From: an uncultured virus (IMG/VR IMGVR_UViG_3300008050_000035)
Lineage: Duplodnaviria > Heunggongvirae > Uroviricota > Caudoviricetes
Length of the DNA: 20,000 nt
IMG/VR virus record: IMGVR_UViG_3300008050_000035
Span: 54,974-74,973 of that record
Direction: 5' to 3' (one strand)
Part shown: positions 10,751 to 19,812 of the stretch, in pieces
Layout of the letters: each line of letters starts with the position of its first letter
Numbering within the stretch: position 1 is the stretch's first letter
Made by a program: the position numbers and the translations under genes
Notes under the pieces: generated by a model
Told to the model about the DNA's origin: nothing
Databases searched by the model: none
The model's input: the letters and a program-made list of their open reading frames with translations, nothing else

Positions 10751-10976
10751 CAAGTAGGTCCTCTGCTTCATAGGGATTGAAGTCTTGTAGTAGTGTGCTG
10801 CGGGCGCTGCATACGATCTCGCACTGTACGCCAACTACACTGAGAAGTGCTTCGCACTCGCCGTCTGTAGTGGCCATGAAGTTAATCATCTGTACGCCCA
10901 GAATAGGCTCGCCGGTACTGGCGTTGATGACCTTGGTGCCATTGGCAGTCCCATCGCTAATGATTTTAAGTTTCAT
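10731..10976 (-). CDS. Small beta-rich hypothetical protein (81 aa)
   Basis: Protein-like alternating hydrophobic pattern (MKLKIISDGTANGTKVINASTGEPILGVQ); operon packing. Confidence 0.7.
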   Translation of the reverse strand: MKLKIISDGTANGTKVINASTGEPILGVQMINFMATTDGECEALLSVVGVQCEIVCSARSTLLQDFNPYEAEDLLDENSSN

Positions 10977-11235
10977 TGAGTAATTTTAAAATTTGGGAAA
11001 GTTTGGGTGGAACGGGCTCAAGAGTCTTGAGAAATTTAAGTAATTCCTGTTGCTCGTTATCTACGTAGTATAACTTAATACAGGCTTTACCGTATCGGCA
11101 GTGACGCCCTCGGGGGCTACTGTCAACGAAAAACTTATACCTATAACTGTGGAAACTCATGAAAACATCATGGCCGTAGCGGCGGTGAAGTCCATGAAGT
11201 AGATTGGATAATTCGTACATACGGTTATGCTGCAT
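10966..11235 (-). CDS. Hypothetical protein (89 aa, MQHNRMYELS...), first gene of the leftward unit
   Basis: First ATG in the ORF is at 11235; the upstream part of the track ORF is AT-rich repeat sequence. Confidence 0.55.
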   Translation of the reverse strand: MQHNRMYELSNLLHGLHRRYGHDVFMSFHSYRYKFFVDSSPRGRHCRYGKACIKLYYVDNEQQELLKFLKTLEPVPPKLSQILKLLNET

Positions 11236-11241
11236 ACTGGT

Positions 11242-11269
11242 AGTATAAACGCCTACGTGTACAGGGCAA
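11242..11269 (-). promoter_or_regulatory. Candidate sigma70-type promoter TTGCCC-N16-TATACT, giving a leaderless mRNA
   Basis: Minus strand -35 at 11269-11264 and -10 at 11247-11242; 6 nt separate the -10 from ATG 11235, which has no SD. Confidence 0.4.
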
Positions 11270-11274
11270 CCAAA

Positions 11275-11324
11275 TGAAATGAAAATTTCAAATACAGGAA
11301 AAGAATTGAGTGAAATGAAAATTT
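11275..11324. repeat. Direct repeat TGAAATGAAAATTT x2 in an AT-rich divergence region
   Basis: Exact 14-mers at 11275-11288 and 11311-11324; ATACAGGA also occurs twice (11292, 11348). Confidence 0.7.
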
Positions 11325-11495
11325 TGGGAATGGAAGAGTAAAAACACATACAGGACTGCAGTACCTGGTTTATTTAAGGCAGTGTAGGTAGGGTCCCTTT
11401 GTGTTCGGAGCCCACCCCGGTCTAAGTATGAGACCATTTCCTTCTTTTTTACGCACGTGGGCAATGTTGCCCATGTGTACATACCGGAGGGACAC

Positions 11496-11534
11496 ATGTG
11501 TGATCCAGAGCGGGGAGATATATTCGACATGTAA
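11496..11534 (+). CDS. Candidate 12-aa minigene MCDPERGDIFDM
   Basis: GGAGG SD 5 nt before ATG; flanked by a degenerate cassette element upstream and a full element downstream. Confidence 0.3.
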   Translation: MCDPERGDIFDM

Positions 11535-11543
11535 GTCGGGTAT

Positions 11544-11590
11544 GGGAGAGCGCAAGCTCTCCCCTCCTTTTTATGGCGTGCTGAAGCCAT
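11544..11590 (+). promoter_or_regulatory. Intergenic cassette element copy 1
   Basis: GGGAGAGC-GCAA-GCTCTCCC, CTCCTTTTT, ATGGC-N8-GCCAT. Confidence 0.8.
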
Positions 11591-12260
11591 GTGTACTGTG
11601 AGTACATGTGGTGAGCGTCGGCTGAGAAGCCTTAAGTCCTGATTACTGTGTGGTGTGTAGGCAACCAGCAGTAAGCTCTCTCCCTACACAACAATGACCC
11701 GGTATGGGGATACTCACAAAGGGCACAACCGCAAGATGTAAGACATCTGCATGTGCCTGGCAATACATACCTGCTTATGCTCCTGCAAGGAAGGAGTTAG
11801 TGAGCCCGCCACTAGGATGCGGGAGGTGACAGTACCACCGATGTACGTTAGTCAGCCTGCGACTAGGATGCAGGATAGTGTAGCCCCTACTAGGACAGGG
11901 GATGTATGAGGGAAGGTGGGGACTGCCCACGGATACCTCTGGTGTGTTGCTCACCCAGGACTGGAGCTGTACGTATGCCTAGTGCATGCGTATAGTGGCC
12001 GGATGCAACTGCTTAGGCCACTATAAGGAAGTGGTAGGTAATCTGCACCTGAAAGCAGGGACGATAGCGCTCGTACAAGCGCTAGTACACAGGTACGACC
12101 TAGTAGGACATGGGCTCAGGTAGGTAGGCATGCCTACACTGAGATGGCACTGCTACTAGGTAACATGCAAGGATAACAGTACGTCCTATACGTGCTCGCT
12201 GTGGGGTGAGATGCCCACATGTACACACTGTACAACCCGTGCACTTAAGCACATAGATGT
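11573..12260 (+). ncRNA. Candidate large structured non-coding RNA or long leader with tandem H-type pseudoknots
   Basis: No credible ORF over ~690 nt; many stems with plus-strand G-U pairs; 4-5 abutting pseudoknots with covariation at 11772-11901. Boundaries inferred. Confidence 0.65.
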
Positions 12261-12273
12261 CCTGGAGGACACC

Positions 12274-12846
12274 ATGACCAGCAACACAATCATCGAGATC
12301 GTCAGTACATTCACCACATACCTGAACACAGGTATCGCATTCATGCTAGCTACCCTAGTAGCGCTTGTGTGTGCAGGCATCGCAGAGAAGATCATGCACG
12401 CACAGAAGACGGCACAGTACAAGGCCCCCTCTGAGGAAGAGGTCTGTGAGGAAGAGGTCATCGCCTGCATAGGCCTGGAGAGCATCAGCGCTGAGGAGTA
12501 CATGGACATGGAAGATGCCTCGGTGGTGGTAGTAGAGACCGCCTATCTGACCCTGGTGGATGAGCCCGTGTACTCTGATGAGGAGTACATGGCTGAGGAA
12601 GACGCTCAGGTAGAAGAGCAGGAGATCACGCTCGAGCAGAACATGGACATGGTAGTGTGGACAGTGAGTCGGAAGATCCTGTCTGCGGTCAAGTTCGTCA
12701 AGGCTCTGGTAGAAGCACCTGCTCGTATAGCCAAGCTGGAGCAGGAGATCGCCGAGCTGAAGCAGAACAACTTCGACTTTGACTTTGACTTCTATGCTGA
12801 CGTGAGTGAAGATGAGGGCGTCGAGCAGTACAGGCGCCAAGCGTAA
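12274..12846 (+). CDS. Membrane-anchored, highly acidic protein with C-terminal coiled coil (190 aa)
   Basis: Start ATG 12274 after TGTCC-TGGA-GGACA SD hairpin; TM GIAFMLATLVALVCAGIA; Glu/Asp-rich middle; RIAKLEQEIAELKQ. Confidence 0.8.
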   Translation: MTSNTIIEIVSTFTTYLNTGIAFMLATLVALVCAGIAEKIMHAQKTAQYKAPSEEEVCEEEVIACIGLESISAEEYMDMEDASVVVVETAYLTLVDEPVYSDEEYMAEEDAQVEEQEITLEQNMDMVVWTVSRKILSAVKFVKALVEAPARIAKLEQEIAELKQNNFDFDFDFYADVSEDEGVEQYRRQA

Positions 12847-12854
12847 GGGCATTT

Positions 12855-12945
12855 GAAAGGCAGCCCACTGGAGGCTACCTTTCTTTTATGGCCTCACAAG
12901 GATATGCATTTCGCATGTTCGGGCCATACCAAAGGAAGCACAATG
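12855..12945 (+). promoter_or_regulatory. Intergenic cassette element copy 2 (expanded second hairpin)
   Basis: GAAAGGCAGCC-CACTGGA-GGCTACCTTTC, TTTT, TATGGCC (12887) pairs with GGCCATA (12922), AAGGA SD, ATG 12943. Confidence 0.85.
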
Positions 12946-13626
12946 CGCACCATCACCATGACCGACGCCGTTCTCGCCCTCATCACCGACGATGCAGACA
13001 GGGAGTTGATGTCTAGCATGAAGGACAGCGAAGCCCCTGAGGACATCATCAAGGATATGCTGACTGAGGGGTCCTACAGCCGCCTGTTCGCAGGCAACAA
13101 CCATGCAGTCGCAGAGCTGCATATCACTGACAACAACAACGCTCAGGAGAGCACCATGATCGAGACCAAGACCACCAAGACCGCCACCCTGTCCTACATG
13201 GGCATAAGCTTCGAGATCACTACCAAGATGGACAAGGCATTCGCTGACAAGACAATCACGGCTGAGGACTTCCCAAACCTGTCCAAGGGCATGCTGCTAC
13301 AGATCGCTACCTGGCAGAACGAGCACGTCAACGCTCAGGACGTGGAGACCCCTGTGGCGGAGACCCTCACCCCTCGGCAGATGTTGAGCAAAGCTTACAA
13401 CGCCCAGCTCTCGGCCAAGCAGAAGACCTGGCTGCGTGCCAACAACCGCTACAAGGGCATCCACTTCGAAGACATGGGAAAGGGTCGCTTCAAGATCCGG
13501 TTCGCCAACTTCAGCACCAAGAGCAAGAAAACCCTGGAAGGCGTGTTCCAGAAGGCTGCTGATGCCAACAACTGGTACTGCAAGGTGCAGGCATCGCACG
13601 TGTACATCAACATGCACCTCGGCTAG
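12943..13626 (+). CDS. Hypothetical protein (227 aa) with a second in-frame start at 13156
   Basis: ATG after cassette element; strong C/G-ending codon bias; acidic N-terminal and basic C-terminal parts. Confidence 0.85.
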   Translation: MRTITMTDAVLALITDDADRELMSSMKDSEAPEDIIKDMLTEGSYSRLFAGNNHAVAELHITDNNNAQESTMIETKTTKTATLSYMGISFEITTKMDKAFADKTITAEDFPNLSKGMLLQIATWQNEHVNAQDVETPVAETLTPRQMLSKAYNAQLSAKQKTWLRANNRYKGIHFEDMGKGRFKIRFANFSTKSKKTLEGVFQKAADANNWYCKVQASHVYINMHLG

Positions 13627-13638
13627 TAGCTGAACATT

Positions 13639-13706
13639 GAAAGGGCACCCACAGGAGGTGCCCTTTTTCTATGGACACTCAAGTCCATGCCTTGGAGGGC
13701 ATTATG
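13639..13706 (+). promoter_or_regulatory. Intergenic cassette element copy 3
   Basis: GAAAGGGCACC-CACAGGA-GGTGCCCTTTT, TCT, ATGGAC-ACTCAA-GTCCAT, ATGCCT-TGGA-GGGCAT, ATG 13704. Confidence 0.85.
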
Positions 13707-14030
13707 ACAACCAACAACACACTGCCTTGGCGCACAGCCGGATCTCTTCGGAACAACACAGTCAAGATCGTAGACAGGCGTGCAGCCTACGACTCAAACT
13801 GCGAGCGTGCCTGCGGCGAATGCGCGGAGTGCAATCGGGCCTGGAACAAGGCTGAAGTCTTCAAGCAAGATCGTGCTGACCTGCACATCCGCATGTGGCG
13901 TGAGCGTGGTGGGCTTATTCCCAACGCGATCGTAGGCTTTGTGCCCTTTGGGCAGAAGAGCTGTGGGTGCATAAGACATTTAGAAGATTGCATGTGTAGG
14001 ATGGTGATAGAAGGTGACATTACGTTCTAA
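13704..14030 (+). CDS. Cys-rich hypothetical protein, possibly metal-binding (108 aa)
   Basis: Start after SD hairpin; CERACGECAEC and CGCIRHLEDCMC clusters. Confidence 0.8.
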   Translation: MTTNNTLPWRTAGSLRNNTVKIVDRRAAYDSNCERACGECAECNRAWNKAEVFKQDRADLHIRMWRERGGLIPNAIVGFVPFGQKSCGCIRHLEDCMCRMVIEGDITF

Positions 14031-14035
14031 GCCTT

Positions 14036-14105
14036 GAGAAGGTAGCCCGCTGGAGGCTACCTTCTCTTTTATGGCACTTACGCCATGATCAAGGAGATCA
14101 ACATG
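14036..14105 (+). promoter_or_regulatory. Intergenic cassette element copy 4
   Basis: Perfect 12-bp GAGAAGGTAGCC-CGCTGGA-GGCTACCTTCTC, TTTT, ATGGC-ACTTAC-GCCAT, TGATC-AAGGA-GATCA, ATG 14103. Confidence 0.85.
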
Positions 14106-14396
14106 ACAAAGAACATTACCCTCGCCCTAGCCCTCACTGGTTGCGGCGATGCAACCTATGGCAAATATGAAGACTCGTTTAAGGAAGTCGACGAATCCAG
14201 AGTCCAGGTCGAAGTGCTAAGCACTCAGTGTGATTTGATAGACTTAAGCTACGATAGCACGCTAATCATAAGTGCTACCCACTGGACCAGCAACGGACTT
14301 CGAGAGCCGATAGGAGGCTGGTGGGAGGGTGAGAACGGAAACGTTCTGCTTCAAGGCTGCGAAGCCAACGTGGAGATCGTTTGGCTTGAACGGTAG
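14103..14396 (+). CDS. Putative lipoprotein (97 aa)
   Basis: MTKNITLALALTG|C: basic residue, short hydrophobic region, lipobox LTGC. Confidence 0.65.
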   Translation: MTKNITLALALTGCGDATYGKYEDSFKEVDESRVQVEVLSTQCDLIDLSYDSTLIISATHWTSNGLREPIGGWWEGENGNVLLQGCEANVEIVWLER

Positions 14397-14402
14397 GCAG
14401 TT

Positions 14403-14466
14403 GAAGGGTGGTGCAAGCCACCCTTCTCTTTTATGGCAATCAAGCCATGTCCTGGAGGACATTATG
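14403..14466 (+). promoter_or_regulatory. Intergenic cassette element copy 5
   Basis: GAAGGGTGGT-GCAA-GCCACCCTTC, TCTTTT, ATGGC-AATCAA-GCCAT, ATGTCC-TGGA-GGACAT, ATG 14464. Confidence 0.9.
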
Positions 14467-14598
14467 ACCAAGACCGATATCGCTACAACCCTCGCTGTTG
14501 GGGCATTCTTCTTCCTGTTCGTCGGGATTCCCACTGATGACGGCCTGTACTTCGGCTACTTCTGGAAGCTCGCCCTCTGGCTCAGTGAGGTGATGTAG
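14464..14598 (+). CDS. Small membrane protein (44 aa)
   Basis: ATG after SD hairpin; hydrophobic LAVGAFFFLFVGI; stop overlaps the next GTG. Confidence 0.75.
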   Translation: MTKTDIATTLAVGAFFFLFVGIPTDDGLYFGYFWKLALWLSEVM

Positions 14599-14978
14599 TG
14601 AGGAACAGCAGGTCTGTCCTGTGGTTTGCCGCAGGGTGTCTGCTGTTCATGCCTGCATTCACCCCTATGATGGTCGACGTTCAGTTGACTGTCTGGATGT
14701 TCGTGGTGGACATGATCAAGCCCAACCCAGCACTGCTCTTCGGCTCCCTGTTCTACTGGCCTGTGCTCATCGCACTTACAGGCTGGTACTGGGTGTGGAG
14801 GGCAGTACGATGGGTCTTCGGCGATGAAGGACCTCTCCCCAGGTTCTTCAAGCTGTTGGGGATAATGTGGGCTCCTGTCTATGTTATCCCCGGCATCGTC
14901 ATCATCAGTCTCCTGGGTTGGCTCATATGCTTCTACAAGGCATATGAGATCCACCTGGGGGACAAGAAGGATTCGTGA
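14598..14978 (+). CDS. Multi-pass membrane protein (126 aa)
   Basis: GAGG(T) SD, GTG start; 3-4 hydrophobic segments. Confidence 0.75.
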   Translation: MRNSRSVLWFAAGCLLFMPAFTPMMVDVQLTVWMFVVDMIKPNPALLFGSLFYWPVLIALTGWYWVWRAVRWVFGDEGPLPRFFKLLGIMWAPVYVIPGIVIISLLGWLICFYKAYEIHLGDKKDS

Positions 14979-15280
14979 GTACAAGACATGTCCGCGAGTA
15001 CTGTTCGCACTGCAGGTGTGAGCAGTGGTGCACACTTAAGGGATGGGGCCTCTACTGTGATGCGAAGGATCACTTCGTTCGTAGTAAGAGGGCCGCCAAG
15101 AGGAAGGCTCCTACATCCACAAGTATGTACAAGGATGTGCGCGGACACATTAACGATACATTCAATGGGCGTGGGACCTACACCTGGGATGAGCTGATCA
15201 TCTGGTGTACTCGCACACACTTCAATGACCTCAAAGGCTTCTGCGAGGACATGAGGGAGGTAGAATGTTCTACGTCGTGA
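14975..15280 (+). CDS. Hypothetical protein with N-terminal zinc-ribbon-like motif (101 aa)
   Basis: GTGA overlap, AAGGA SD; CSHC...YCDAKDH. Confidence 0.75.
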   Translation: MSTRHVREYCSHCRCEQWCTLKGWGLYCDAKDHFVRSKRAAKRKAPTSTSMYKDVRGHINDTFNGRGTYTWDELIIWCTRTHFNDLKGFCEDMREVECSTS

Positions 15281-15399
15281 ATCAGTACGACGAAGAGACT
15301 GACCTGAAAGCTACGAGCTGGAAGGAAGCTTACAAAGAGGTTCGGGAGATGTTCCCGCACTTCTACGGAAAGCTGAACTCAATCATCTTCAAGAGATAG
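15265..15399 (+). CDS. Small hypothetical protein (44 aa, MFYVVNQYDEETDLKATSWKEAYKEVREMFPHFYGKLNSIIFKR)
   Basis: Below the ORF-track cutoff; GGGAGGT SD just upstream; ends 5 nt before cassette copy 6. Confidence 0.75.
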   Translation: MFYVVNQYDEETDLKATSWKEAYKEVREMFPHFYGKLNSIIFKR

Positions 15400-15404
15400 C
15401 ATTG

Positions 15405-15469
15405 GAAGGGCACTAGAAGGTGCCCTTCTCTTTTATGGCAATTCCTGCCATGTCCTGGAGGACATTATG
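15405..15469 (+). promoter_or_regulatory. Intergenic cassette element copy 6
   Basis: GAAGGGCACT-AGAA-GGTGCCCTTC, TCTTTT, ATGGCA-ATTCC-TGCCAT, ATGTCC-TGGA-GGACAT, ATG 15467. Confidence 0.9.
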
Positions 15470-15742
15470 CGTAACAGTACAACAGATCGCCTCGGTGCAG
15501 AGATCACCAATCAGTGGCGTGCGTTCAAGGGCACAAAGGCAGAGTTCATGGCTCAGCTGGAAGGCGTCACTTTGGACCAGCAAGTCATTACGTACGTCAA
15601 TCCGCTGATGAAGCACATCAAGCAGCAGTTCATGCCATGGGCAGCTGGGATGGAGATCAGCTTCTACTGCACCATCGTCCGTGGCCGCAGCTTGATCAGC
15701 GTATACAGCTATGGCGACAGTGACTGGCATTGCAAGTACTGA
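15467..15742 (+). CDS. Hypothetical protein (91 aa)
   Basis: Bounded by cassette copies 6 and 7; strong SD. Confidence 0.85.
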   Translation: MRNSTTDRLGAEITNQWRAFKGTKAEFMAQLEGVTLDQQVITYVNPLMKHIKQQFMPWAAGMEISFYCTIVRGRSLISVYSYGDSDWHCKY

Positions 15743-15755
15743 GATAACATTGAGC

Positions 15756-15932
15756 GGGGGCCTTCGGGCTCCCCTCTCTTTTATGGTACTCCGCTTTGGA
15801 CCTGATGGTCCGGGACTCCGCTGTCCGAGATGACTAGAGGACCAACCATCAGGAGGGGCGTGGCTCGCGCAGCTCGCCTTCTTCAAGGATTTCGCGCACT
15901 AACGTCCAACATGCTGGAGGGCATAATTCATG
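15756..15932 (+). promoter_or_regulatory. Intergenic cassette element copy 7 with a ~147-nt structured leader before the RNA polymerase gene
   Basis: GGGGGCC-TTCG-GGCTCCC, CTCTCTTTT, ATGGT; CCTGATGGT/ACCATCAGG stem; ATGCT-GGAG-GGCAT SD hairpin; ATG 15930. Confidence 0.8.
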
Positions 15933-18900
15933 GACAGACCAACCAACGAAGAGCGCTATAACGCGTTCGCCAAGAACAACATCATCAGCAACCACATGGA
16001 CCTCGTATGGGGCATCATGGTTGGCTTCGACCTGGCACCAAGTGTCAGGACATACTGCGCAGCGCTAGGAGAGGACTTTGAAGTAGAGGCTCTCGAGCAT
16101 GACCCCATGGGTAAGCTCATCCTTAATCACGTAAGCGATCTGTGGGAGCAGCGGAAGGCCGAGAAGCTGGAGAAGAGGTGGGCCAAGGAGGTGCGGCGTG
16201 TTGCACGTCGCGCCGCATACGCTGACGCTTCGGAGATCAAGGCGAGTAGTCGTCGTGATGGCACCGTGCGATTCTCCTTCGATACTGCCATGGCCTGCAT
16301 GGGCCTCATGGCAGAAATCCTCAACTACGAGGGTGTCTCTCAAGAAGAGCCTGTGGTTCTGAATTTACTTAATCGCCTCCCCTTCGTCAAGAACGAGAAG
16401 GGTAAAGAAACTACCAGACAGCATGATGTTCCTATTAGTGAAGCTGAGAACTTCGGCACCTGTGGTTACGAGCTATACCAGCTCAAGACCCTATGGAACT
16501 CGAAGATCACCGAACTGTGGGACATCTTCGAACGTTGCCTTCCTACCGCAATTGATCGAAGCAGCTATCATCGTCGGATGCGTGCTCCACTCATCCCCGG
16601 CGGCTTCTTGGCTGCGCAGCGCGTCCGCGTCGGCGAACTGCATGTGCGTGGCAAGTCCATGCAGGCTGATGGTAGTGGGTGGTATGATCCTCACCACGAG
16701 GACATGGCTGACCTCATGGCAGAGTACGGTCCTGTCGGACTGCAGTACACTGCCGTCAACCCCATCACCGGTCACTTCTTCAAGGGTATCATATACCCAA
16801 TGGAGAGTATGAATGACTGCGGTGAAGACACTGCGGCCATCCAATTCGACCATCTGCAGGTCAAGGGCGCCAAGAAGGCTGCCCACAAGACGCTTGCCAA
16901 ACTTGATCCTCGCGGACTGCTGGCCGGCGCATTCATGCTTGACGGTGTTCACATCGGCATCATGAAGGCCAAGACCACGATCGGTAAAGTCTCGGGCTGC
17001 TTCGAGACCTTGGAGAACATTGGCCCTAACCCTGCTCACTATGAGAAGGGAAAGGGCAGTGCCAAGTACATCCGCGATAAGCTTCGTGTGGCTAAACTCA
17101 TCGCAAGTCTGACTGCTGAGTCAGTCAATGCCATTGGTGAGCTTGGCCCACAAGGCCTGCTCGGTCGTGCCACCCGTGACGATCCTCACCTGCGTCGTTT
17201 GGCAGAGTTCATCGCTCTGGCAAACGGCAAGGGAGCGGGCATCAACCCGCTCGGCATTCCGCTGCTGGCTTCTAAGCTGCGGGAGAGCTTGAGTCGTCGC
17301 ATGTGGGGTCCTGCCAATGGTGCAGGTATCGATGGCAAGTACCCGATGGTCGTGATTGACGCAACCCTGAAGCCAGGGACCTGCGTCATCGCTGGCTACA
17401 AGACCGGCACCAAGCTCGCATGCTGGCGTTTCCCCACCGTTCTCGCCCAGTCCTTGCTGGTTCTCGAGGTCGTTGGTGGCAAGCGTCATCACCGCGTGGA
17501 TGATAAGGTTGTTCGCAACCTCATATACATGAACCCGCATGACATCACGACATGTCAGCAGGGTGACGACGACGGAGATGAAGTAGGTATCTCCGATGAC
17601 CCACGAGTCATCGAGTTGTTCAATCATAAGATCGACAACGGTGTCTACCACATCGAGCCCACGTCTGAGAAGCTCGTTCACCTAGCCAGGGAGCCAAAGG
17701 GCAAGGAATATTTACGAAAGAACCCAATGGGGCCAGTTGGTCGCATCACTATCTGGCGTGCAGCTCTGCTCGCCGTTGGCGATTATCAACTGGCACGTGC
17801 CTTCAGTGTCCTCATCCAAGAGGCCATTGACATGCAGAAGAACATCGTCCGCATGACACACCCCCTAAAGGCCTCCAACCTTAACAACTGGTACAAGAAT
17901 CGTAATGGTGAGTATCACATCCACTACAAGTGCAACGGCAGTGCAAACTGTCTCTGCACCGAGCGAGTGGATGGGAAGTGTCCCAATAAGGATAGCGGCT
18001 ACCTGACGGACAACTGGCTCCAGGAAGAGCCAGGTTTCGACATGGACGTAGTTGAGGATGTCTACAAGAACGCCCTCATTAGTGCGGGTTGCAGCAGAGT
18101 CGTAAAGACCAAGGGTGGCGGGACGAAAGTCATCGCCGGCTGGCCTCTTGGCTGGCGTAACCAGGCTCGCATCATCGAGCTCGGAGACGGCAAGAAGGGT
18201 GAAAACCCTATCCGAAAGGCAGTGGCTCTAGACAACTGGAAGTCCTGGCGCGAGAAACAGGATGGTGAGTTCAGTAACTGGGTCCACGTGGCCCACGACC
18301 TGGCCATGATTCGCTGGCGCCAATGGCACGACAGCTTCAAAGTGTCAGAGGAAGTACCTACCAAGGACGTCCTCCACAAGATTCTAACTGCCCTGGGCTC
18401 CCCGCTCAAGCCACTACCAATCACGTGGCAGCAATACGCAGAGAAGTCGCACAGGAGTAATCCTGACCCCCTCCGGGTCCGTGCTGGCATCATTGCCTAT
18501 GGCGCTGATATGAAGCGGATTCGTACCGAGGGAACCAAGGATGAGGGAAACCTCACTGGTCCAGTCGACGAATCAGCGAGAATGGCTAGGATTGACAACA
18601 TCAGGGCTCACCTGGAGCTAGCGCTCAGCAACCTTAGTCCCCAAGAGCTTCTCACCGTATGGGAGAAGGAACTGACGGACTGCTGGTACTACGGTAGGCA
18701 GGGTAAGCCTAAGTGTTACACAACAGACAAGAAGTCCATTCCAGAAGGAGTGAAGTTCTACACAGCAAACAAGCCCAACTACGCCTTCATGGCCCTGTGT
18801 TCCAGACACTCGGCAATCATGAAGGTCTTGGGCATGGAAGCTTCAGAAGCCTGCAGCTGGACCAACGAGAAGCGTTTAGTGTCGTACGTGAAGTGGTGCC

Positions 18901-19202
18901 GCGCCCAACCTGACAGCTACAAGGCTCTCTCAACGATTATCCGAGGCAACAAGGGTCATCTGAGGGATGTCCACGATGAGAACGGCAAGCATCTGCATCT
19001 CACTGAGTGCAAAGAATGCACATCTCGGCTCGAAACCGCGCTGGTTCGCTCTATCCGGAGTGACCGCACGGCAGACGAACAGGAGAAGACAAAGACTCTC
19101 ATCAGCGCAATGAATAAGCTTCCACACGAAACTGTGGAAGGCACCCAGCAAGAAGAGCCTGCGTACGTAGAAGTGTACATAGATGACAATCCATACGGTT
19201 AG
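15930..19202 (+). CDS. Single-subunit two-barrel (double-psi beta-barrel) RNA polymerase, YonO-like / cellular RdRP (QDE-1)-like (1090 aa)
   Basis: Motifs in canonical order: ADGSG (aa ~246), FKG (K285), WRFP (R500), GDDDGD = DxDGD (aa 546-550, nt 17565-17579), VGRIT, QEAIDMQK (D634). Confidence 0.85.
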   Translation: MDRPTNEERYNAFAKNNIISNHMDLVWGIMVGFDLAPSVRTYCAALGEDFEVEALEHDPMGKLILNHVSDLWEQRKAEKLEKRWAKEVRRVARRAAYADASEIKASSRRDGTVRFSFDTAMACMGLMAEILNYEGVSQEEPVVLNLLNRLPFVKNEKGKETTRQHDVPISEAENFGTCGYELYQLKTLWNSKITELWDIFERCLPTAIDRSSYHRRMRAPLIPGGFLAAQRVRVGELHVRGKSMQADGSGWYDPHHEDMADLMAEYGPVGLQYTAVNPITGHFFKGIIYPMESMNDCGEDTAAIQFDHLQVKGAKKAAHKTLAKLDPRGLLAGAFMLDGVHIGIMKAKTTIGKVSGCFETLENIGPNPAHYEKGKGSAKYIRDKLRVAKLIASLTAESVNAIGELGPQGLLGRATRDDPHLRRLAEFIALANGKGAGINPLGIPLLASKLRESLSRRMWGPANGAGIDGKYPMVVIDATLKPGTCVIAGYKTGTKLACWRFPTVLAQSLLVLEVVGGKRHHRVDDKVVRNLIYMNPHDITTCQQGDDDGDEVGISDDPRVIELFNHKIDNGVYHIEPTSEKLVHLAREPKGKEYLRKNPMGPVGRITIWRAALLAVGDYQLARAFSVLIQEAIDMQKNIVRMTHPLKASNLNNWYKNRNGEYHIHYKCNGSANCLCTERVDGKCPNKDSGYLTDNWLQEEPGFDMDVVEDVYKNALISAGCSRVVKTKGGGTKVIAGWPLGWRNQARIIELGDGKKGENPIRKAVALDNWKSWREKQDGEFSNWVHVAHDLAMIRWRQWHDSFKVSEEVPTKDVLHKILTALGSPLKPLPITWQQYAEKSHRSNPDPLRVRAGIIAYGADMKRIRTEGTKDEGNLTGPVDESARMARIDNIRAHLELALSNLSPQELLTVWEKELTDCWYYGRQGKPKCYTTDKKSIPEGVKFYTANKPNYAFMALCSRHSAIMKVLGMEASEACSWTNEKRLVSYVKWCRAQPDSYKALSTIIRGNKGHLRDVHDENGKHLHLTECKECTSRLETALVRSIRSDRTADEQEKTKTLISAMNKLPHETVEGTQQEEPAYVEVYIDDNPYG

Positions 19203-19290
19203 GCGTGCGTAGCACGCCGTATTGGGCGAGTGGGTCGTGCCGCTCGTCCTCCAGCCTGAGTGTGGGCCCAAACGGGCCCCCTCTTTATTT
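19202..19290 (+). terminator. Three tandem hairpins ending in a pyrimidine/U tract after the RNAP gene (degenerate copy 8)
   Basis: GGCGTGC-GTA-GCACGCC; GGGCGAGTGG-N6-CCGCTCGTCC; GGGCCC-AAAC-GGGCCC then CCTCTTTATTT. Confidence 0.65.
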
Positions 19291-19307
19291 ACAACCAATG
19301 AGAACCA

Positions 19308-19751
19308 ATGAGAGCAACCTACGAGAAGACGTTCAACGTCATCGTAGTAGAACTCTCTGCAGAAGAGGCCGAGAAGTACTGCGCAGCAGAAATAAGTGAA
19401 AGACATATGGACCTTGAGAAGCAGGGAAACACCTACTATTACACAATTCCATGCGGGAACAGATTCTACCAAATGACTCAGCGTCAAAAGGGTGGTATTC
19501 AACCATGGGGGCCTGACTACCTTCGTCAGGCTATAAGAGCAGCCGTGGCAAACAGGTTCGTAGCCTGGGAAAGCCAAACGGGCCAAGAACAATTCAAGAA
19601 ATACAAGTCCGAGTGGAATAAAGTGTTCCAAAGTCTACTCCGGAACGTACGCTTGAAATTCCCAACGGGTCGGCACCCACGTGGCCGACTCAACAAGAGT
19701 GAGTACAAGTTTCGCGAGCAATGGCGAGATAAATACGTTTGTAGCCGATAG
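19308..19751 (+). CDS. Hypothetical basic protein (147 aa)
   Basis: ORF fills the interval between two terminator-like elements; weak SD. Confidence 0.75.
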   Translation: MRATYEKTFNVIVVELSAEEAEKYCAAEISERHMDLEKQGNTYYYTIPCGNRFYQMTQRQKGGIQPWGPDYLRQAIRAAVANRFVAWESQTGQEQFKKYKSEWNKVFQSLLRNVRLKFPTGRHPRGRLNKSEYKFREQWRDKYVCSR

Positions 19752-19763
19752 CTACAAGAATAT

Positions 19764-19812
19764 GGGGTCCGTAGGACCCCTTATTTTATGACTCAGTCCA
19801 GGAGGGAAAATG
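19764..19812 (+). promoter_or_regulatory. Intergenic cassette element copy 9 (degenerate)
   Basis: GGGGTCC-GTA-GGACCCC, TTATTTT, ATGAC..GTCC-AGGAGGG, ATG 19810. Confidence 0.7.

Follow-up and report, generated by a model that had tools for sequence, protein, structure and literature searches.

The window analysed here, a stretch of 20,000 nucleotides (nt) from an uncultured Caudoviricetes virus, is the final 20 kb of a 74,973-base contig in IMG/VR (IMGVR_UViG_3300008050_000035, positions 54,974 to 74,973). The same region is carried by a 192,537-base contig that is rated complete, and the 951 bases compared are identical. Cultured relatives are distant only (terminase <28% identical), and similar DNA was not found in cultured phage records. 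A leftward gene block that includes the large terminase ends at a small gene, and rightward genes start at 12274; between the two lies a region of about 650 nt (approximately 11574..12219, + strand) that is noncoding, is folded much more stably on the + strand than on the other, and is matched by counterparts at collinear positions in marine phage contigs; it is treated as a candidate large early RNA. Within this region, at 11772..11901, an original prediction made from the letters of the sequence had described a chain of four to five abutting pseudoknots. The chain is real, but it is not an isolated element of 130 nt; it is one segment of a conserved structured region of ~0.65 kb. The region starts directly after a terminator at 11544-11573 plus the T-run/ATGGC motif that belongs to it, and is bounded at its 3′ side by two conserved hairpins, just upstream of the ribosome-binding site of a gene for a protein of 190 amino acids (aa). 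No conserved open reading frame (ORF) was found across it in the window and relatives. We infer the transcript, its ends and its strand from sequence.

The pseudoknot units and their counterparts in related phages

Four strong units had been read in the chain as H-type pseudoknots, and their stem strings and coordinates proved exact when checked against the sequence. Unit 1 (11798-11823, + strand) has two stems of 5 base pairs (bp), a first loop (L1) of 2 nt, a second loop (L2) of zero length and a third loop (L3) of 4 nt. Unit 2 (11825-11846, + strand) is a weak candidate pseudoknot of 4+4 bp that is read from sequence only. Unit 3 (11849-11874, + strand) is paralogous to unit 1, from which it differs by two compensated pairs, and unit 4 (11876-11901, + strand) combines a 5-bp stem 2 hairpin (11884-11888 with 11897-11901) with a 4-bp stem 1. 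The zero-length L2, the short linkers and the G(G)A-containing L3 are also as originally read: L2 is 0 in units 1-4, the linkers are 1-2 nt, and L3 is GGAT, GAT, GGAT and GGAC in order. Units 1, 3 and 4 form a single repeat family (identity 86% and 69%, spacing 51 and 27 nt), to which unit 2, standing between units 1 and 3, is unrelated.

Four of the 26 positions (5, 10, 13, and 24) distinguish unit 3 from unit 1, and a position-by-position comparison confirmed that these make up two whole base pairs, one compensatory pair per stem: from unit 1 to unit 3, stem 1 changes from G-C to C-G, and stem 2 from C-G to T-A. The chance of four changes landing on 2 of 10 pairs, all of them still Watson-Crick, was computed as ~3e-4, a post hoc figure, since the unit sequences themselves had supplied the fold.

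A weaker unit had been placed upstream of these four, at 11772-11797. The element that we recognize there, unit 0 (11774..11797, + strand), is a 6-bp hairpin (11779-11784 with 11792-11797) whose 7-nt loop ends in AAGGA, together with a possible stem 1 of 3 bp, on the same strand, between CTT (11774-11776) and AAG (11787-11789). Unit 1 adjoins it with a spacer of 0 nt. The 6-bp hairpin of the original reading covaries in the related locus L144 (C-G to A-T, alignment columns 499/511), but the stem 1 that had been drawn for it (TGC/GCA) is broken in that same locus. Unit 0 is better read as CTT/AAG plus the 6-bp hairpin because a second-type pseudoknot module at 12012..12034 (+ strand; stem 1 CTTA/TAAG, 5-bp stem 2, L3 GA) is its paralogue (repeat D3).

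The interleaved stems proved to be a non-random feature of this DNA. On the + strand of 11575-12215 (641 nt), 5 H-type pseudoknots with at least 9 Watson-Crick pairs were found, against a mean of 0.26 in dinucleotide shuffles of the same stretch (0 of 100 shuffles reached 5); elsewhere on the + strand of the whole 75-kb contig, only two other 5+5 cases are among those listed. A looser scan gave 5 observed pseudoknots against a shuffled mean of 0.62, with none of 40 shuffles as high. Under the same scan, the count in L144 likewise exceeded all 40 shuffles, and in L142 the observed count was reached by 2 of 40. The folding energy of the region as a whole is similarly marked: on the + strand, 11574-12219 folds at -256.3 kcal/mol (z -4.91), with 0 of 20 shuffles as good, vs. 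-216.8 kcal/mol (z -1.59) on the opposite strand. In nested-fold ensembles, the stem of the unit 0 hairpin has a probability of 0.90-0.99.

Seven sequences were compared: the window and the loci L132, L133, L134, L135, L142, and L144. Both proteins flanking the region are nearly without relatives. Searches of IMG/VR with the 190-aa, 127-aa, and 983-aa proteins returned the same phage only (the 192-kb contig), and the homologue search with the 190-aa protein returned only itself. Six further metagenome loci nevertheless came from an alignment of the small leftward protein, and two more IMG/VR contigs from DNA patterns. In L132, L133, L134, L142, and L144, the collinear place is taken up by a long stretch with no conserved ORF, and L135 has a noncoding stretch of ~0.85 kb there. 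The counterparts in L134 (~0.63 kb) and L133 (1.06 kb) are complete, and those of L132, L142, and L144 are cut by the contig end.

A hairpin followed without spacer by a small H-type pseudoknot, the arrangement of units 0 and 1, is predicted in the window, L142, L144, L132, and L134, that is, in 5 of the 7 sequences and in three lineages, and the pairing patterns show it to be kept while its stems differ. Stem 1 is TAGTG/CACTA in the window, CAACT/AGTTG in L142, CATA/TATG in L144, and TAGT/ACTA in both L132 and L134; stem 2 is CCCGC/GCGGG, CCTGT/ACAGG, GCCTGCC/GGCAGGC, TGTGT/ACACA, and TGTGT/GCACA (with one U-G), in the same order. Three different stem-1 sequences and four different stem-2 sequences are found among the five modules. 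Compensated changes between L142 and L144 occur in both stems of the unit 1 counterpart, and covariation was located in separate alignments at columns 525/538 for stem 2 and at columns 76/87 and 77/86 for stem 1. For unit 1, the claimed compensatory upkeep is thus seen in its paralogue as well as in L142, L144, L132, and L134. Interleaved helices kept by compensation, by which an H-type pseudoknot is recognized, are found for unit 1, and stem 2 of unit 4 is also supported: L142, L144, and L134 contain matching hairpins, and in L132 the hairpin recurs in compensated form (columns 347-362). The loop of unit 0 is unchanged in L142 and L144 while the stem that carries it covaries. For unit 2, an 8-nt word is common to L134 and L132 at a collinear place, where a matching fold was not recognised.

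In L142 and L144, a second pseudoknot follows 2-3 nt after the first. It is of the other type (stem 1 CTTA/TAAG, L3 G or GA), lies at 4081-4105 in L142 and at 4006-4030 in L144, and has a stem 2 that is compensated between the two loci. Abutting pseudoknots are therefore a trait of the family, and the chain of four to five units is, as far as the compared sequences go, specific to this phage.

Pairing is kept beyond the modules as well. The predicted fold of L142 and L144 contains 159 pairs; both partners changed in 7 of them, a single partner changed via G-U in 17, and no pair was broken. The consensus energy is -179.05 on the + strand vs. -158 on the - strand, 21 kcal/mol worse. For L134 and L132, 16 of 83 pairs changed on both sides, again with none broken. 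In three lineages, the core of each 3′ hairpin is retained, whereas the pair that closes it varies. Overall, the consensus folds show a region that is structured, and would be misread as a proven map of it. The likeness of the window to its relatives in sequence is limited to three blocks, namely the 5′ start, a 12-nt word in the middle and ~120 nt at the 3′ end, the last of which includes the two hairpins and the ribosome-binding block. The ends are conserved, and the middle is fast-evolving and variable in length.

Two DNA patterns had 0 matches in bacterial and archaeal genome contigs. In viral contigs, the two-unit DNA pattern matched at least 120 stretches; among the matches listed, the loci screened included none besides the same phage in which more than one unit had a complementary stem 2 of 5 bp. 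The unit 0 pattern found the true relatives; its one other match, L141, was set aside as a chance match in coding DNA, as were two matches of the 3′ hairpin A pattern (described below) inside a helicase-like gene, the only ones beyond the same phage. At one IMG/VR contig end (L072, - strand, 1-140), a perfect 24-nt tandem repeat occurs in at least 5 copies; it has the ACTAGGA word and a 6-bp hairpin, and is probably unrelated.

The structured region and its neighbourhood

Apart from the pseudoknots, the region contains several smaller elements, all on the + strand. A 5′ hairpin at 11587..11611 (inverted repeat I18) has TGTGA in its loop; its counterpart covaries between L134 and L132, and the 5′ block can be aligned to L133. 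A short hairpin at 11916..11930 (repeat families D2 and D12) is paired in the minimum-free-energy fold and resembles the hairpins at 11457-11474 and 12201-12218. A 12-nt tandem palindromic block occupies 12066..12089, and a 12-nt word from it is kept in L134. At the 3′ end, hairpin A (12178..12196) has 7 pairs, including one conserved U-G, and a 5-nt loop; its core is identical in the window, L134, and L133, with a different closing pair in each of the three (A-U, U-A, G-C). The 17-nt core occurs once in the 192-kb genome, and the idea that hairpin A is a repeated promoter was rejected on this basis. Hairpin B (12201..12218) has 5 pairs and an 8-nt loop, and its closing pair is G-C, A-U, or G-U among lineages. 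The start of the 190-aa gene follows at 12264..12276, with GGAGGA as ribosome-binding site and the ATG at 12274, and this block is kept in L134 even though the protein encoded after it is unrelated.

Certain palindromic words are frequent in this family. CTAG, GTAC, and CATG are enriched 2-6 times in all seven related stretches relative to the rest of the genome; for CTAG, the density is 7.1-14.3 per kb in the seven stretches vs. 2.9 per kb in the rest of the genome. Self-complementary contacts between loops could be the source of this enrichment. ACTAGG is present in 4 copies in the window RNA vs. ~0.1 per kb elsewhere.

The rightward unit is rich in terminators, with 23 terminator-like sites on its + strand vs. 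7.1 expected. Strong intrinsic terminators at 11544, 14036, 14403, 15404, and 15756 are each followed by the same motif, a T-run and then ATGGC, and from this repetition of terminator and motif (11419-19780, + strand) it follows that the rightward genes come as cassettes. The terminator-bounded arrangement is also seen in related loci, and the block of small terminator-bounded genes is taken to be one of early genes. Two terminators precede the flagged region, at 11419-11450 and 11544-11573, and from 11901 to the ATG at 12274 the + strand has no terminator-like site. A mini-cassette occupies 11454-11573 and consists of a hairpin, a good ribosome-binding site, a 12-codon ORF (11496-11534) and the terminator at 11544-11573; its hairpin and the word that follows recur at 12201-12228 (repeat D2). 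Further upstream, just after the divergent promoter region, 11385-11450 holds a block of ~34 nt ending in GAGCCCACCCC and then a terminator, and this block is kept in every related locus covering that place. It may be a short leader or a small RNA that opens the rightward unit, e.g., an anti-termination element, an idea that arises because many terminators lie downstream. Its conserved element (11385-11418) was also considered as a tRNA or transfer-messenger RNA (tmRNA), which was rejected as ARAGORN was negative.

Base composition changes across the locus: the leftward block has a G+C content of 43-48%, which rises to 52-55% in the rightward one (contig G000, 62.5-75 kb, corresponding to window position ~7500 onward). 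The cumulative GC skew has its minimum at window position ~10058. The units region is identical in contigs G000 and G001, which represent the same phage. On the leftward side, the listed 127-aa ORF (10966-11349, - strand) probably starts at an internal Met at 11220, giving a basic protein of 84 aa that is kept beside the RNA in all relatives. Its AlphaFold model is all-helical, with a predicted local distance difference test score (pLDDT) of 93.9. As a possible RNA partner it was dropped, there being no informative fold match (best Foldseek E 5.7); the best VIA-align hit of the model, at Z 5.5, was among generic helical bundles. The neighbouring genes tested gave no Pfam match above the curated cut-off, no PADLOC family and no NCBIfam match above threshold.

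The stretch occurs in three marine DNA sequencing runs from three studies, and the phage contig has a depth of 22.5. The runs (X1-X3) also contain short contigs of 307-420 nt (391, 420, and 307) at depths of 640-1535, values that are not copy numbers. The short contigs match the window only at 11768-11796 and 12168-12216, with 303-330 other letters between the matches; 29 nt of the unit 0 region are common to them, and the letters that precede the first match are L144 sequence. We read these contigs as related phages with a shorter middle, with the caveat that short-sided joints usually come from other organisms. Related phages carrying the RNA may be far more abundant than the phage described here.

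Known RNAs and alternative explanations

The original prediction had not recognised the chain as a known family, and the searches agree. Rfam gave no match at the gathering score in the window, and relaxing the threshold to E 10 for 11150-12400 or to E 0.1 for the six related loci did not produce one either; separately, a (GT)n microsatellite in the noncoding early region of L135 (4571-4620) produced a spurious Rfam microRNA match. ARAGORN found 0 tRNA genes in the 20-kb window, and neither ARAGORN nor Rfam found a tmRNA. No account of the RNA came up in literature searches on tandem phage pseudoknots and on large noncoding and ornate marine phage RNAs, and the RNA family is previously uncatalogued.

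Among known RNAs, GOLLD (RF01998) and ROOL (RF03087) offer the broadest likeness, being phage-encoded, similar in size and full of hairpins and pseudoknots, with a conserved end and a variable middle; one account gives for them a conserved end, a variable part, pseudoknots, a phage origin and a length of several hundred to ~1000 nt (PMC12286853). In contrast, the region described here has no covariance-model match to them even at permissive thresholds, and it heads a small terminator-bounded gene block, directly before a protein gene. GOLLD and ROOL often lie in the neighbourhood of tRNA genes, of which the 20-kb window has none. The pseudoknots of tmRNA act through their structure and not through a specific sequence. 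Like the present region, tmRNA strings several small H-type pseudoknots together in a single RNA, and in tmRNA their number varies by lineage (PMC1168896). However, the tRNA-like and tag-coding domain was not found here by ARAGORN or Rfam, and the modules here abut, with linkers of 0-2 nt. The upstream pseudoknot domain in the 3′ untranslated region (UTR) of tobamoviruses also consists of consecutive stacked pseudoknots that form a quasi-continuous helix, but it belongs to a plant RNA virus, lies beside a tRNA-like structure and has no relation in sequence or context to the present region.

Other functions can be proposed for such a region. It is conceivable, though we think it unlikely, that the G(G)A loops form a multivalent decoy that titrates a host RNA-binding protein (of the CsrA/RsmA type, S1 or the 30S subunit) early, in which case each added module would be an added binding site. 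CsrA-type proteins bind GGA in hairpin loops, and GGA-containing loops recur in unit 0, in the L3 of units 1, 3, and 4, and in the module at 12012-12034. The constancy of the unit 0 loop in L142 and L144 over a covarying stem would fit such a role, as would the frequency of AGGA, which is 15.6 per kb in the window RNA vs. 3.4-3.7 per kb in the rest of the genome. However, GGA itself, at 29.6 per kb in the window, falls to 12.6-18.4 per kb in the relatives, near the background of 9.8-13.9, and the conserved words AAGGA and ACUAGGA are accounted for by stem 1 pairing plus L3. Sponges of the CsrB type have far denser GGA motifs; the dense GGA expected of CsrB/RsmZ is not present here in every member, and Rfam showed no match to CsrB or Rsm RNAs. 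The sole CsrA-like match in the phage, at 14.6 bits, lies below the 27-bit cut-off.

An equally doubtful reading makes the region a cis-acting 5′ leader of the first sizeable rightward gene, one that would stabilise the mRNA, or gate translation or read-through, in a unit interrupted by many terminators. The absence of a terminator between the RNA and the 190-aa gene is consistent with this, as are the many strong terminators of the rightward unit, right after one of which the RNA begins, and the fact that, in the window and L134, the ribosome-binding block is conserved together with the 3′ hairpins. Nevertheless, the window, L134, and L133 encode unrelated proteins downstream of the RNA (blastp E ≥1), so that it does not belong with any single gene. 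By our own comparison, known leaders are, to our knowledge, far shorter than this RNA, which measures 0.63-1.06 kb and varies in its middle. Moreover, the RNA cannot act on the two upstream terminators because both lie before it.

The repeated TAGT...ACTAGGA words could instead act at the DNA level, as sites (operators or iterons) bound by a DNA-binding protein of the phage or host, or within a replication origin, but this is improbable. Three repeats carry the same inverted words, and the region does lie between divergent gene blocks, with the GC-skew minimum 1.5 kb away; that minimum coincides with the switch in coding strand, which would be enough to explain it. What is preserved by the changes between units and between relatives is pairing and not sequence, the one-sided changes via G-U would be mismatches on the other strand, and the fold is far better on the + strand.

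The original prediction had drawn a comparison with type III antitoxins, or a phage mimic of one, in which ToxI-like repeats are cut into units that neutralise a ToxN-type endoribonuclease. We consider this very improbable here. The likeness lies in repeated short units that are each able to form a pseudoknot, in a phage, and one report describes a phage that escapes ToxIN by RNA-based antitoxin mimicry (PMC3475682). A type III locus, as defined in another, has a tandem repeat array, then a terminator, then the toxin gene (PMC5086642). None of these is seen here: there is no head-to-tail array of near-identical units, and Tandem Repeats Finder reported no array at 11772-11901; neither a terminator nor a toxin gene lies downstream; and a search of the 192-kb genome for the ToxN family (PF13958), in which CptN and TenpN were not sought by name, gave 0 matches with E values up to 1. 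The neighbouring genes lack Pfam matches above cut-off and PADLOC families, as noted above, and the relatives keep the fold of unit 1, not its sequence, and one copy of the module. Least likely of all is that the 52-codon ORF at 11751-11909 encodes a small repeat-containing peptide: it is open, and the repeats are spaced by whole numbers of codons (51 and 27 nt), but no ribosome-binding site precedes its ATG, it is not kept in L142, L144, or L134, and 2 of the 4 differences between units 1 and 3 change an amino acid when translated in frame.

A proposed structural arm and its significance

We favour, with a probability of roughly 0.6, the reading in which the chain is a structural arm of an uncatalogued, large, structured + strand RNA that heads the early genes of an uncultured marine phage. 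A number of observations weigh on the other side. The sequencing runs that contain the stretch are DNA runs, with no RNA run among them. Support from relatives does not extend to units 2 and 3 or to stem 1 of unit 4, which exist only in this phage; unit 2, with 4+4 pairs, also falls below the scan threshold of 9 pairs. A counterpart of the unit 1 module was not recognised in L133 or L135 (2 of the 7 sequences), and pseudoknot counts under the looser scan were not above those of shuffles in L132 (10/40), L133 (17/40), L134 (3/40), or L135 (4/40). Probabilities in the nested-fold ensembles, which contain no pseudoknot model and in which the two stems of a unit compete, are low (0.22-0.26 for unit 1 stem 2, 0.02 for unit 3 stem 2, and 0.00 for unit 4), and competing pairings exist for units 1, 3, and 4. 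For L134 and L132, RNAalifold favours a nested alternative to stem 1. The consensus folds use alignments of two or three sequences, with a program, RNAalifold, that favours covarying pairs, and the lineages that are independent number three, as L142/L144 and L132/L134 are close pairs. Finally, the role of structural arm is drawn by analogy.

A path to the present chain can be sketched. The unit 1 module would have been copied locally in this phage to give unit 3, and the neighbouring hairpin, unit 4, would have acquired the same stem 1 and loop, yielding an arm of four or five modules. The modules may stack coaxially into a quasi-continuous helix of ~100 nt, as suggested by the zero-length L2 and the linkers of 0-2 nt. 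The L3 loops are rich in purines (GGAU, GGAC, GA) and would occupy the minor groove of an AU-rich stem 1, as L3 usually does in H-type pseudoknots. The scaffold-like, quasi-continuous arm of the original prediction remains a fair description; the nuclease block or decoy that it also named is conceivable. Such an arm could serve as an architectural spacer or docking surface that keeps the conserved domains in position within an RNA that folds autonomously. By analogy with the pseudoknot string of tmRNA or with GOLLD and ROOL, we tentatively put this role, rather than that of a sequence-specific antitoxin, at somewhat short of even odds.

A bolder and unlikely extension of the structural-arm reading is that the RNA represents a new class of large early marine-phage RNA built from small, copy-variable pseudoknot modules, with the stacked rod acting as a surface for self-association or as a multivalent decoy for a host protein, either RNA-binding or defensive. 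If true, the decoy version would be an RNA-based device for host takeover without precedent, and the self-association version would amount to RNA-only assembly, for which the enriched palindromic words may be compared.

Large structured RNAs such as GOLLD and ROOL are rare and have unexpected architectures. A small pseudoknot module whose fold is kept while its sequence varies freely, and which one lineage has multiplied into an abutting chain, would be unusual. The region provides a defined construct of ~650 nt with which the RNA may be studied, and the family, with one or two modules in the relatives and four or five in this phage, provides a natural series from which the contribution of a pseudoknot rod to such an RNA may be gauged.

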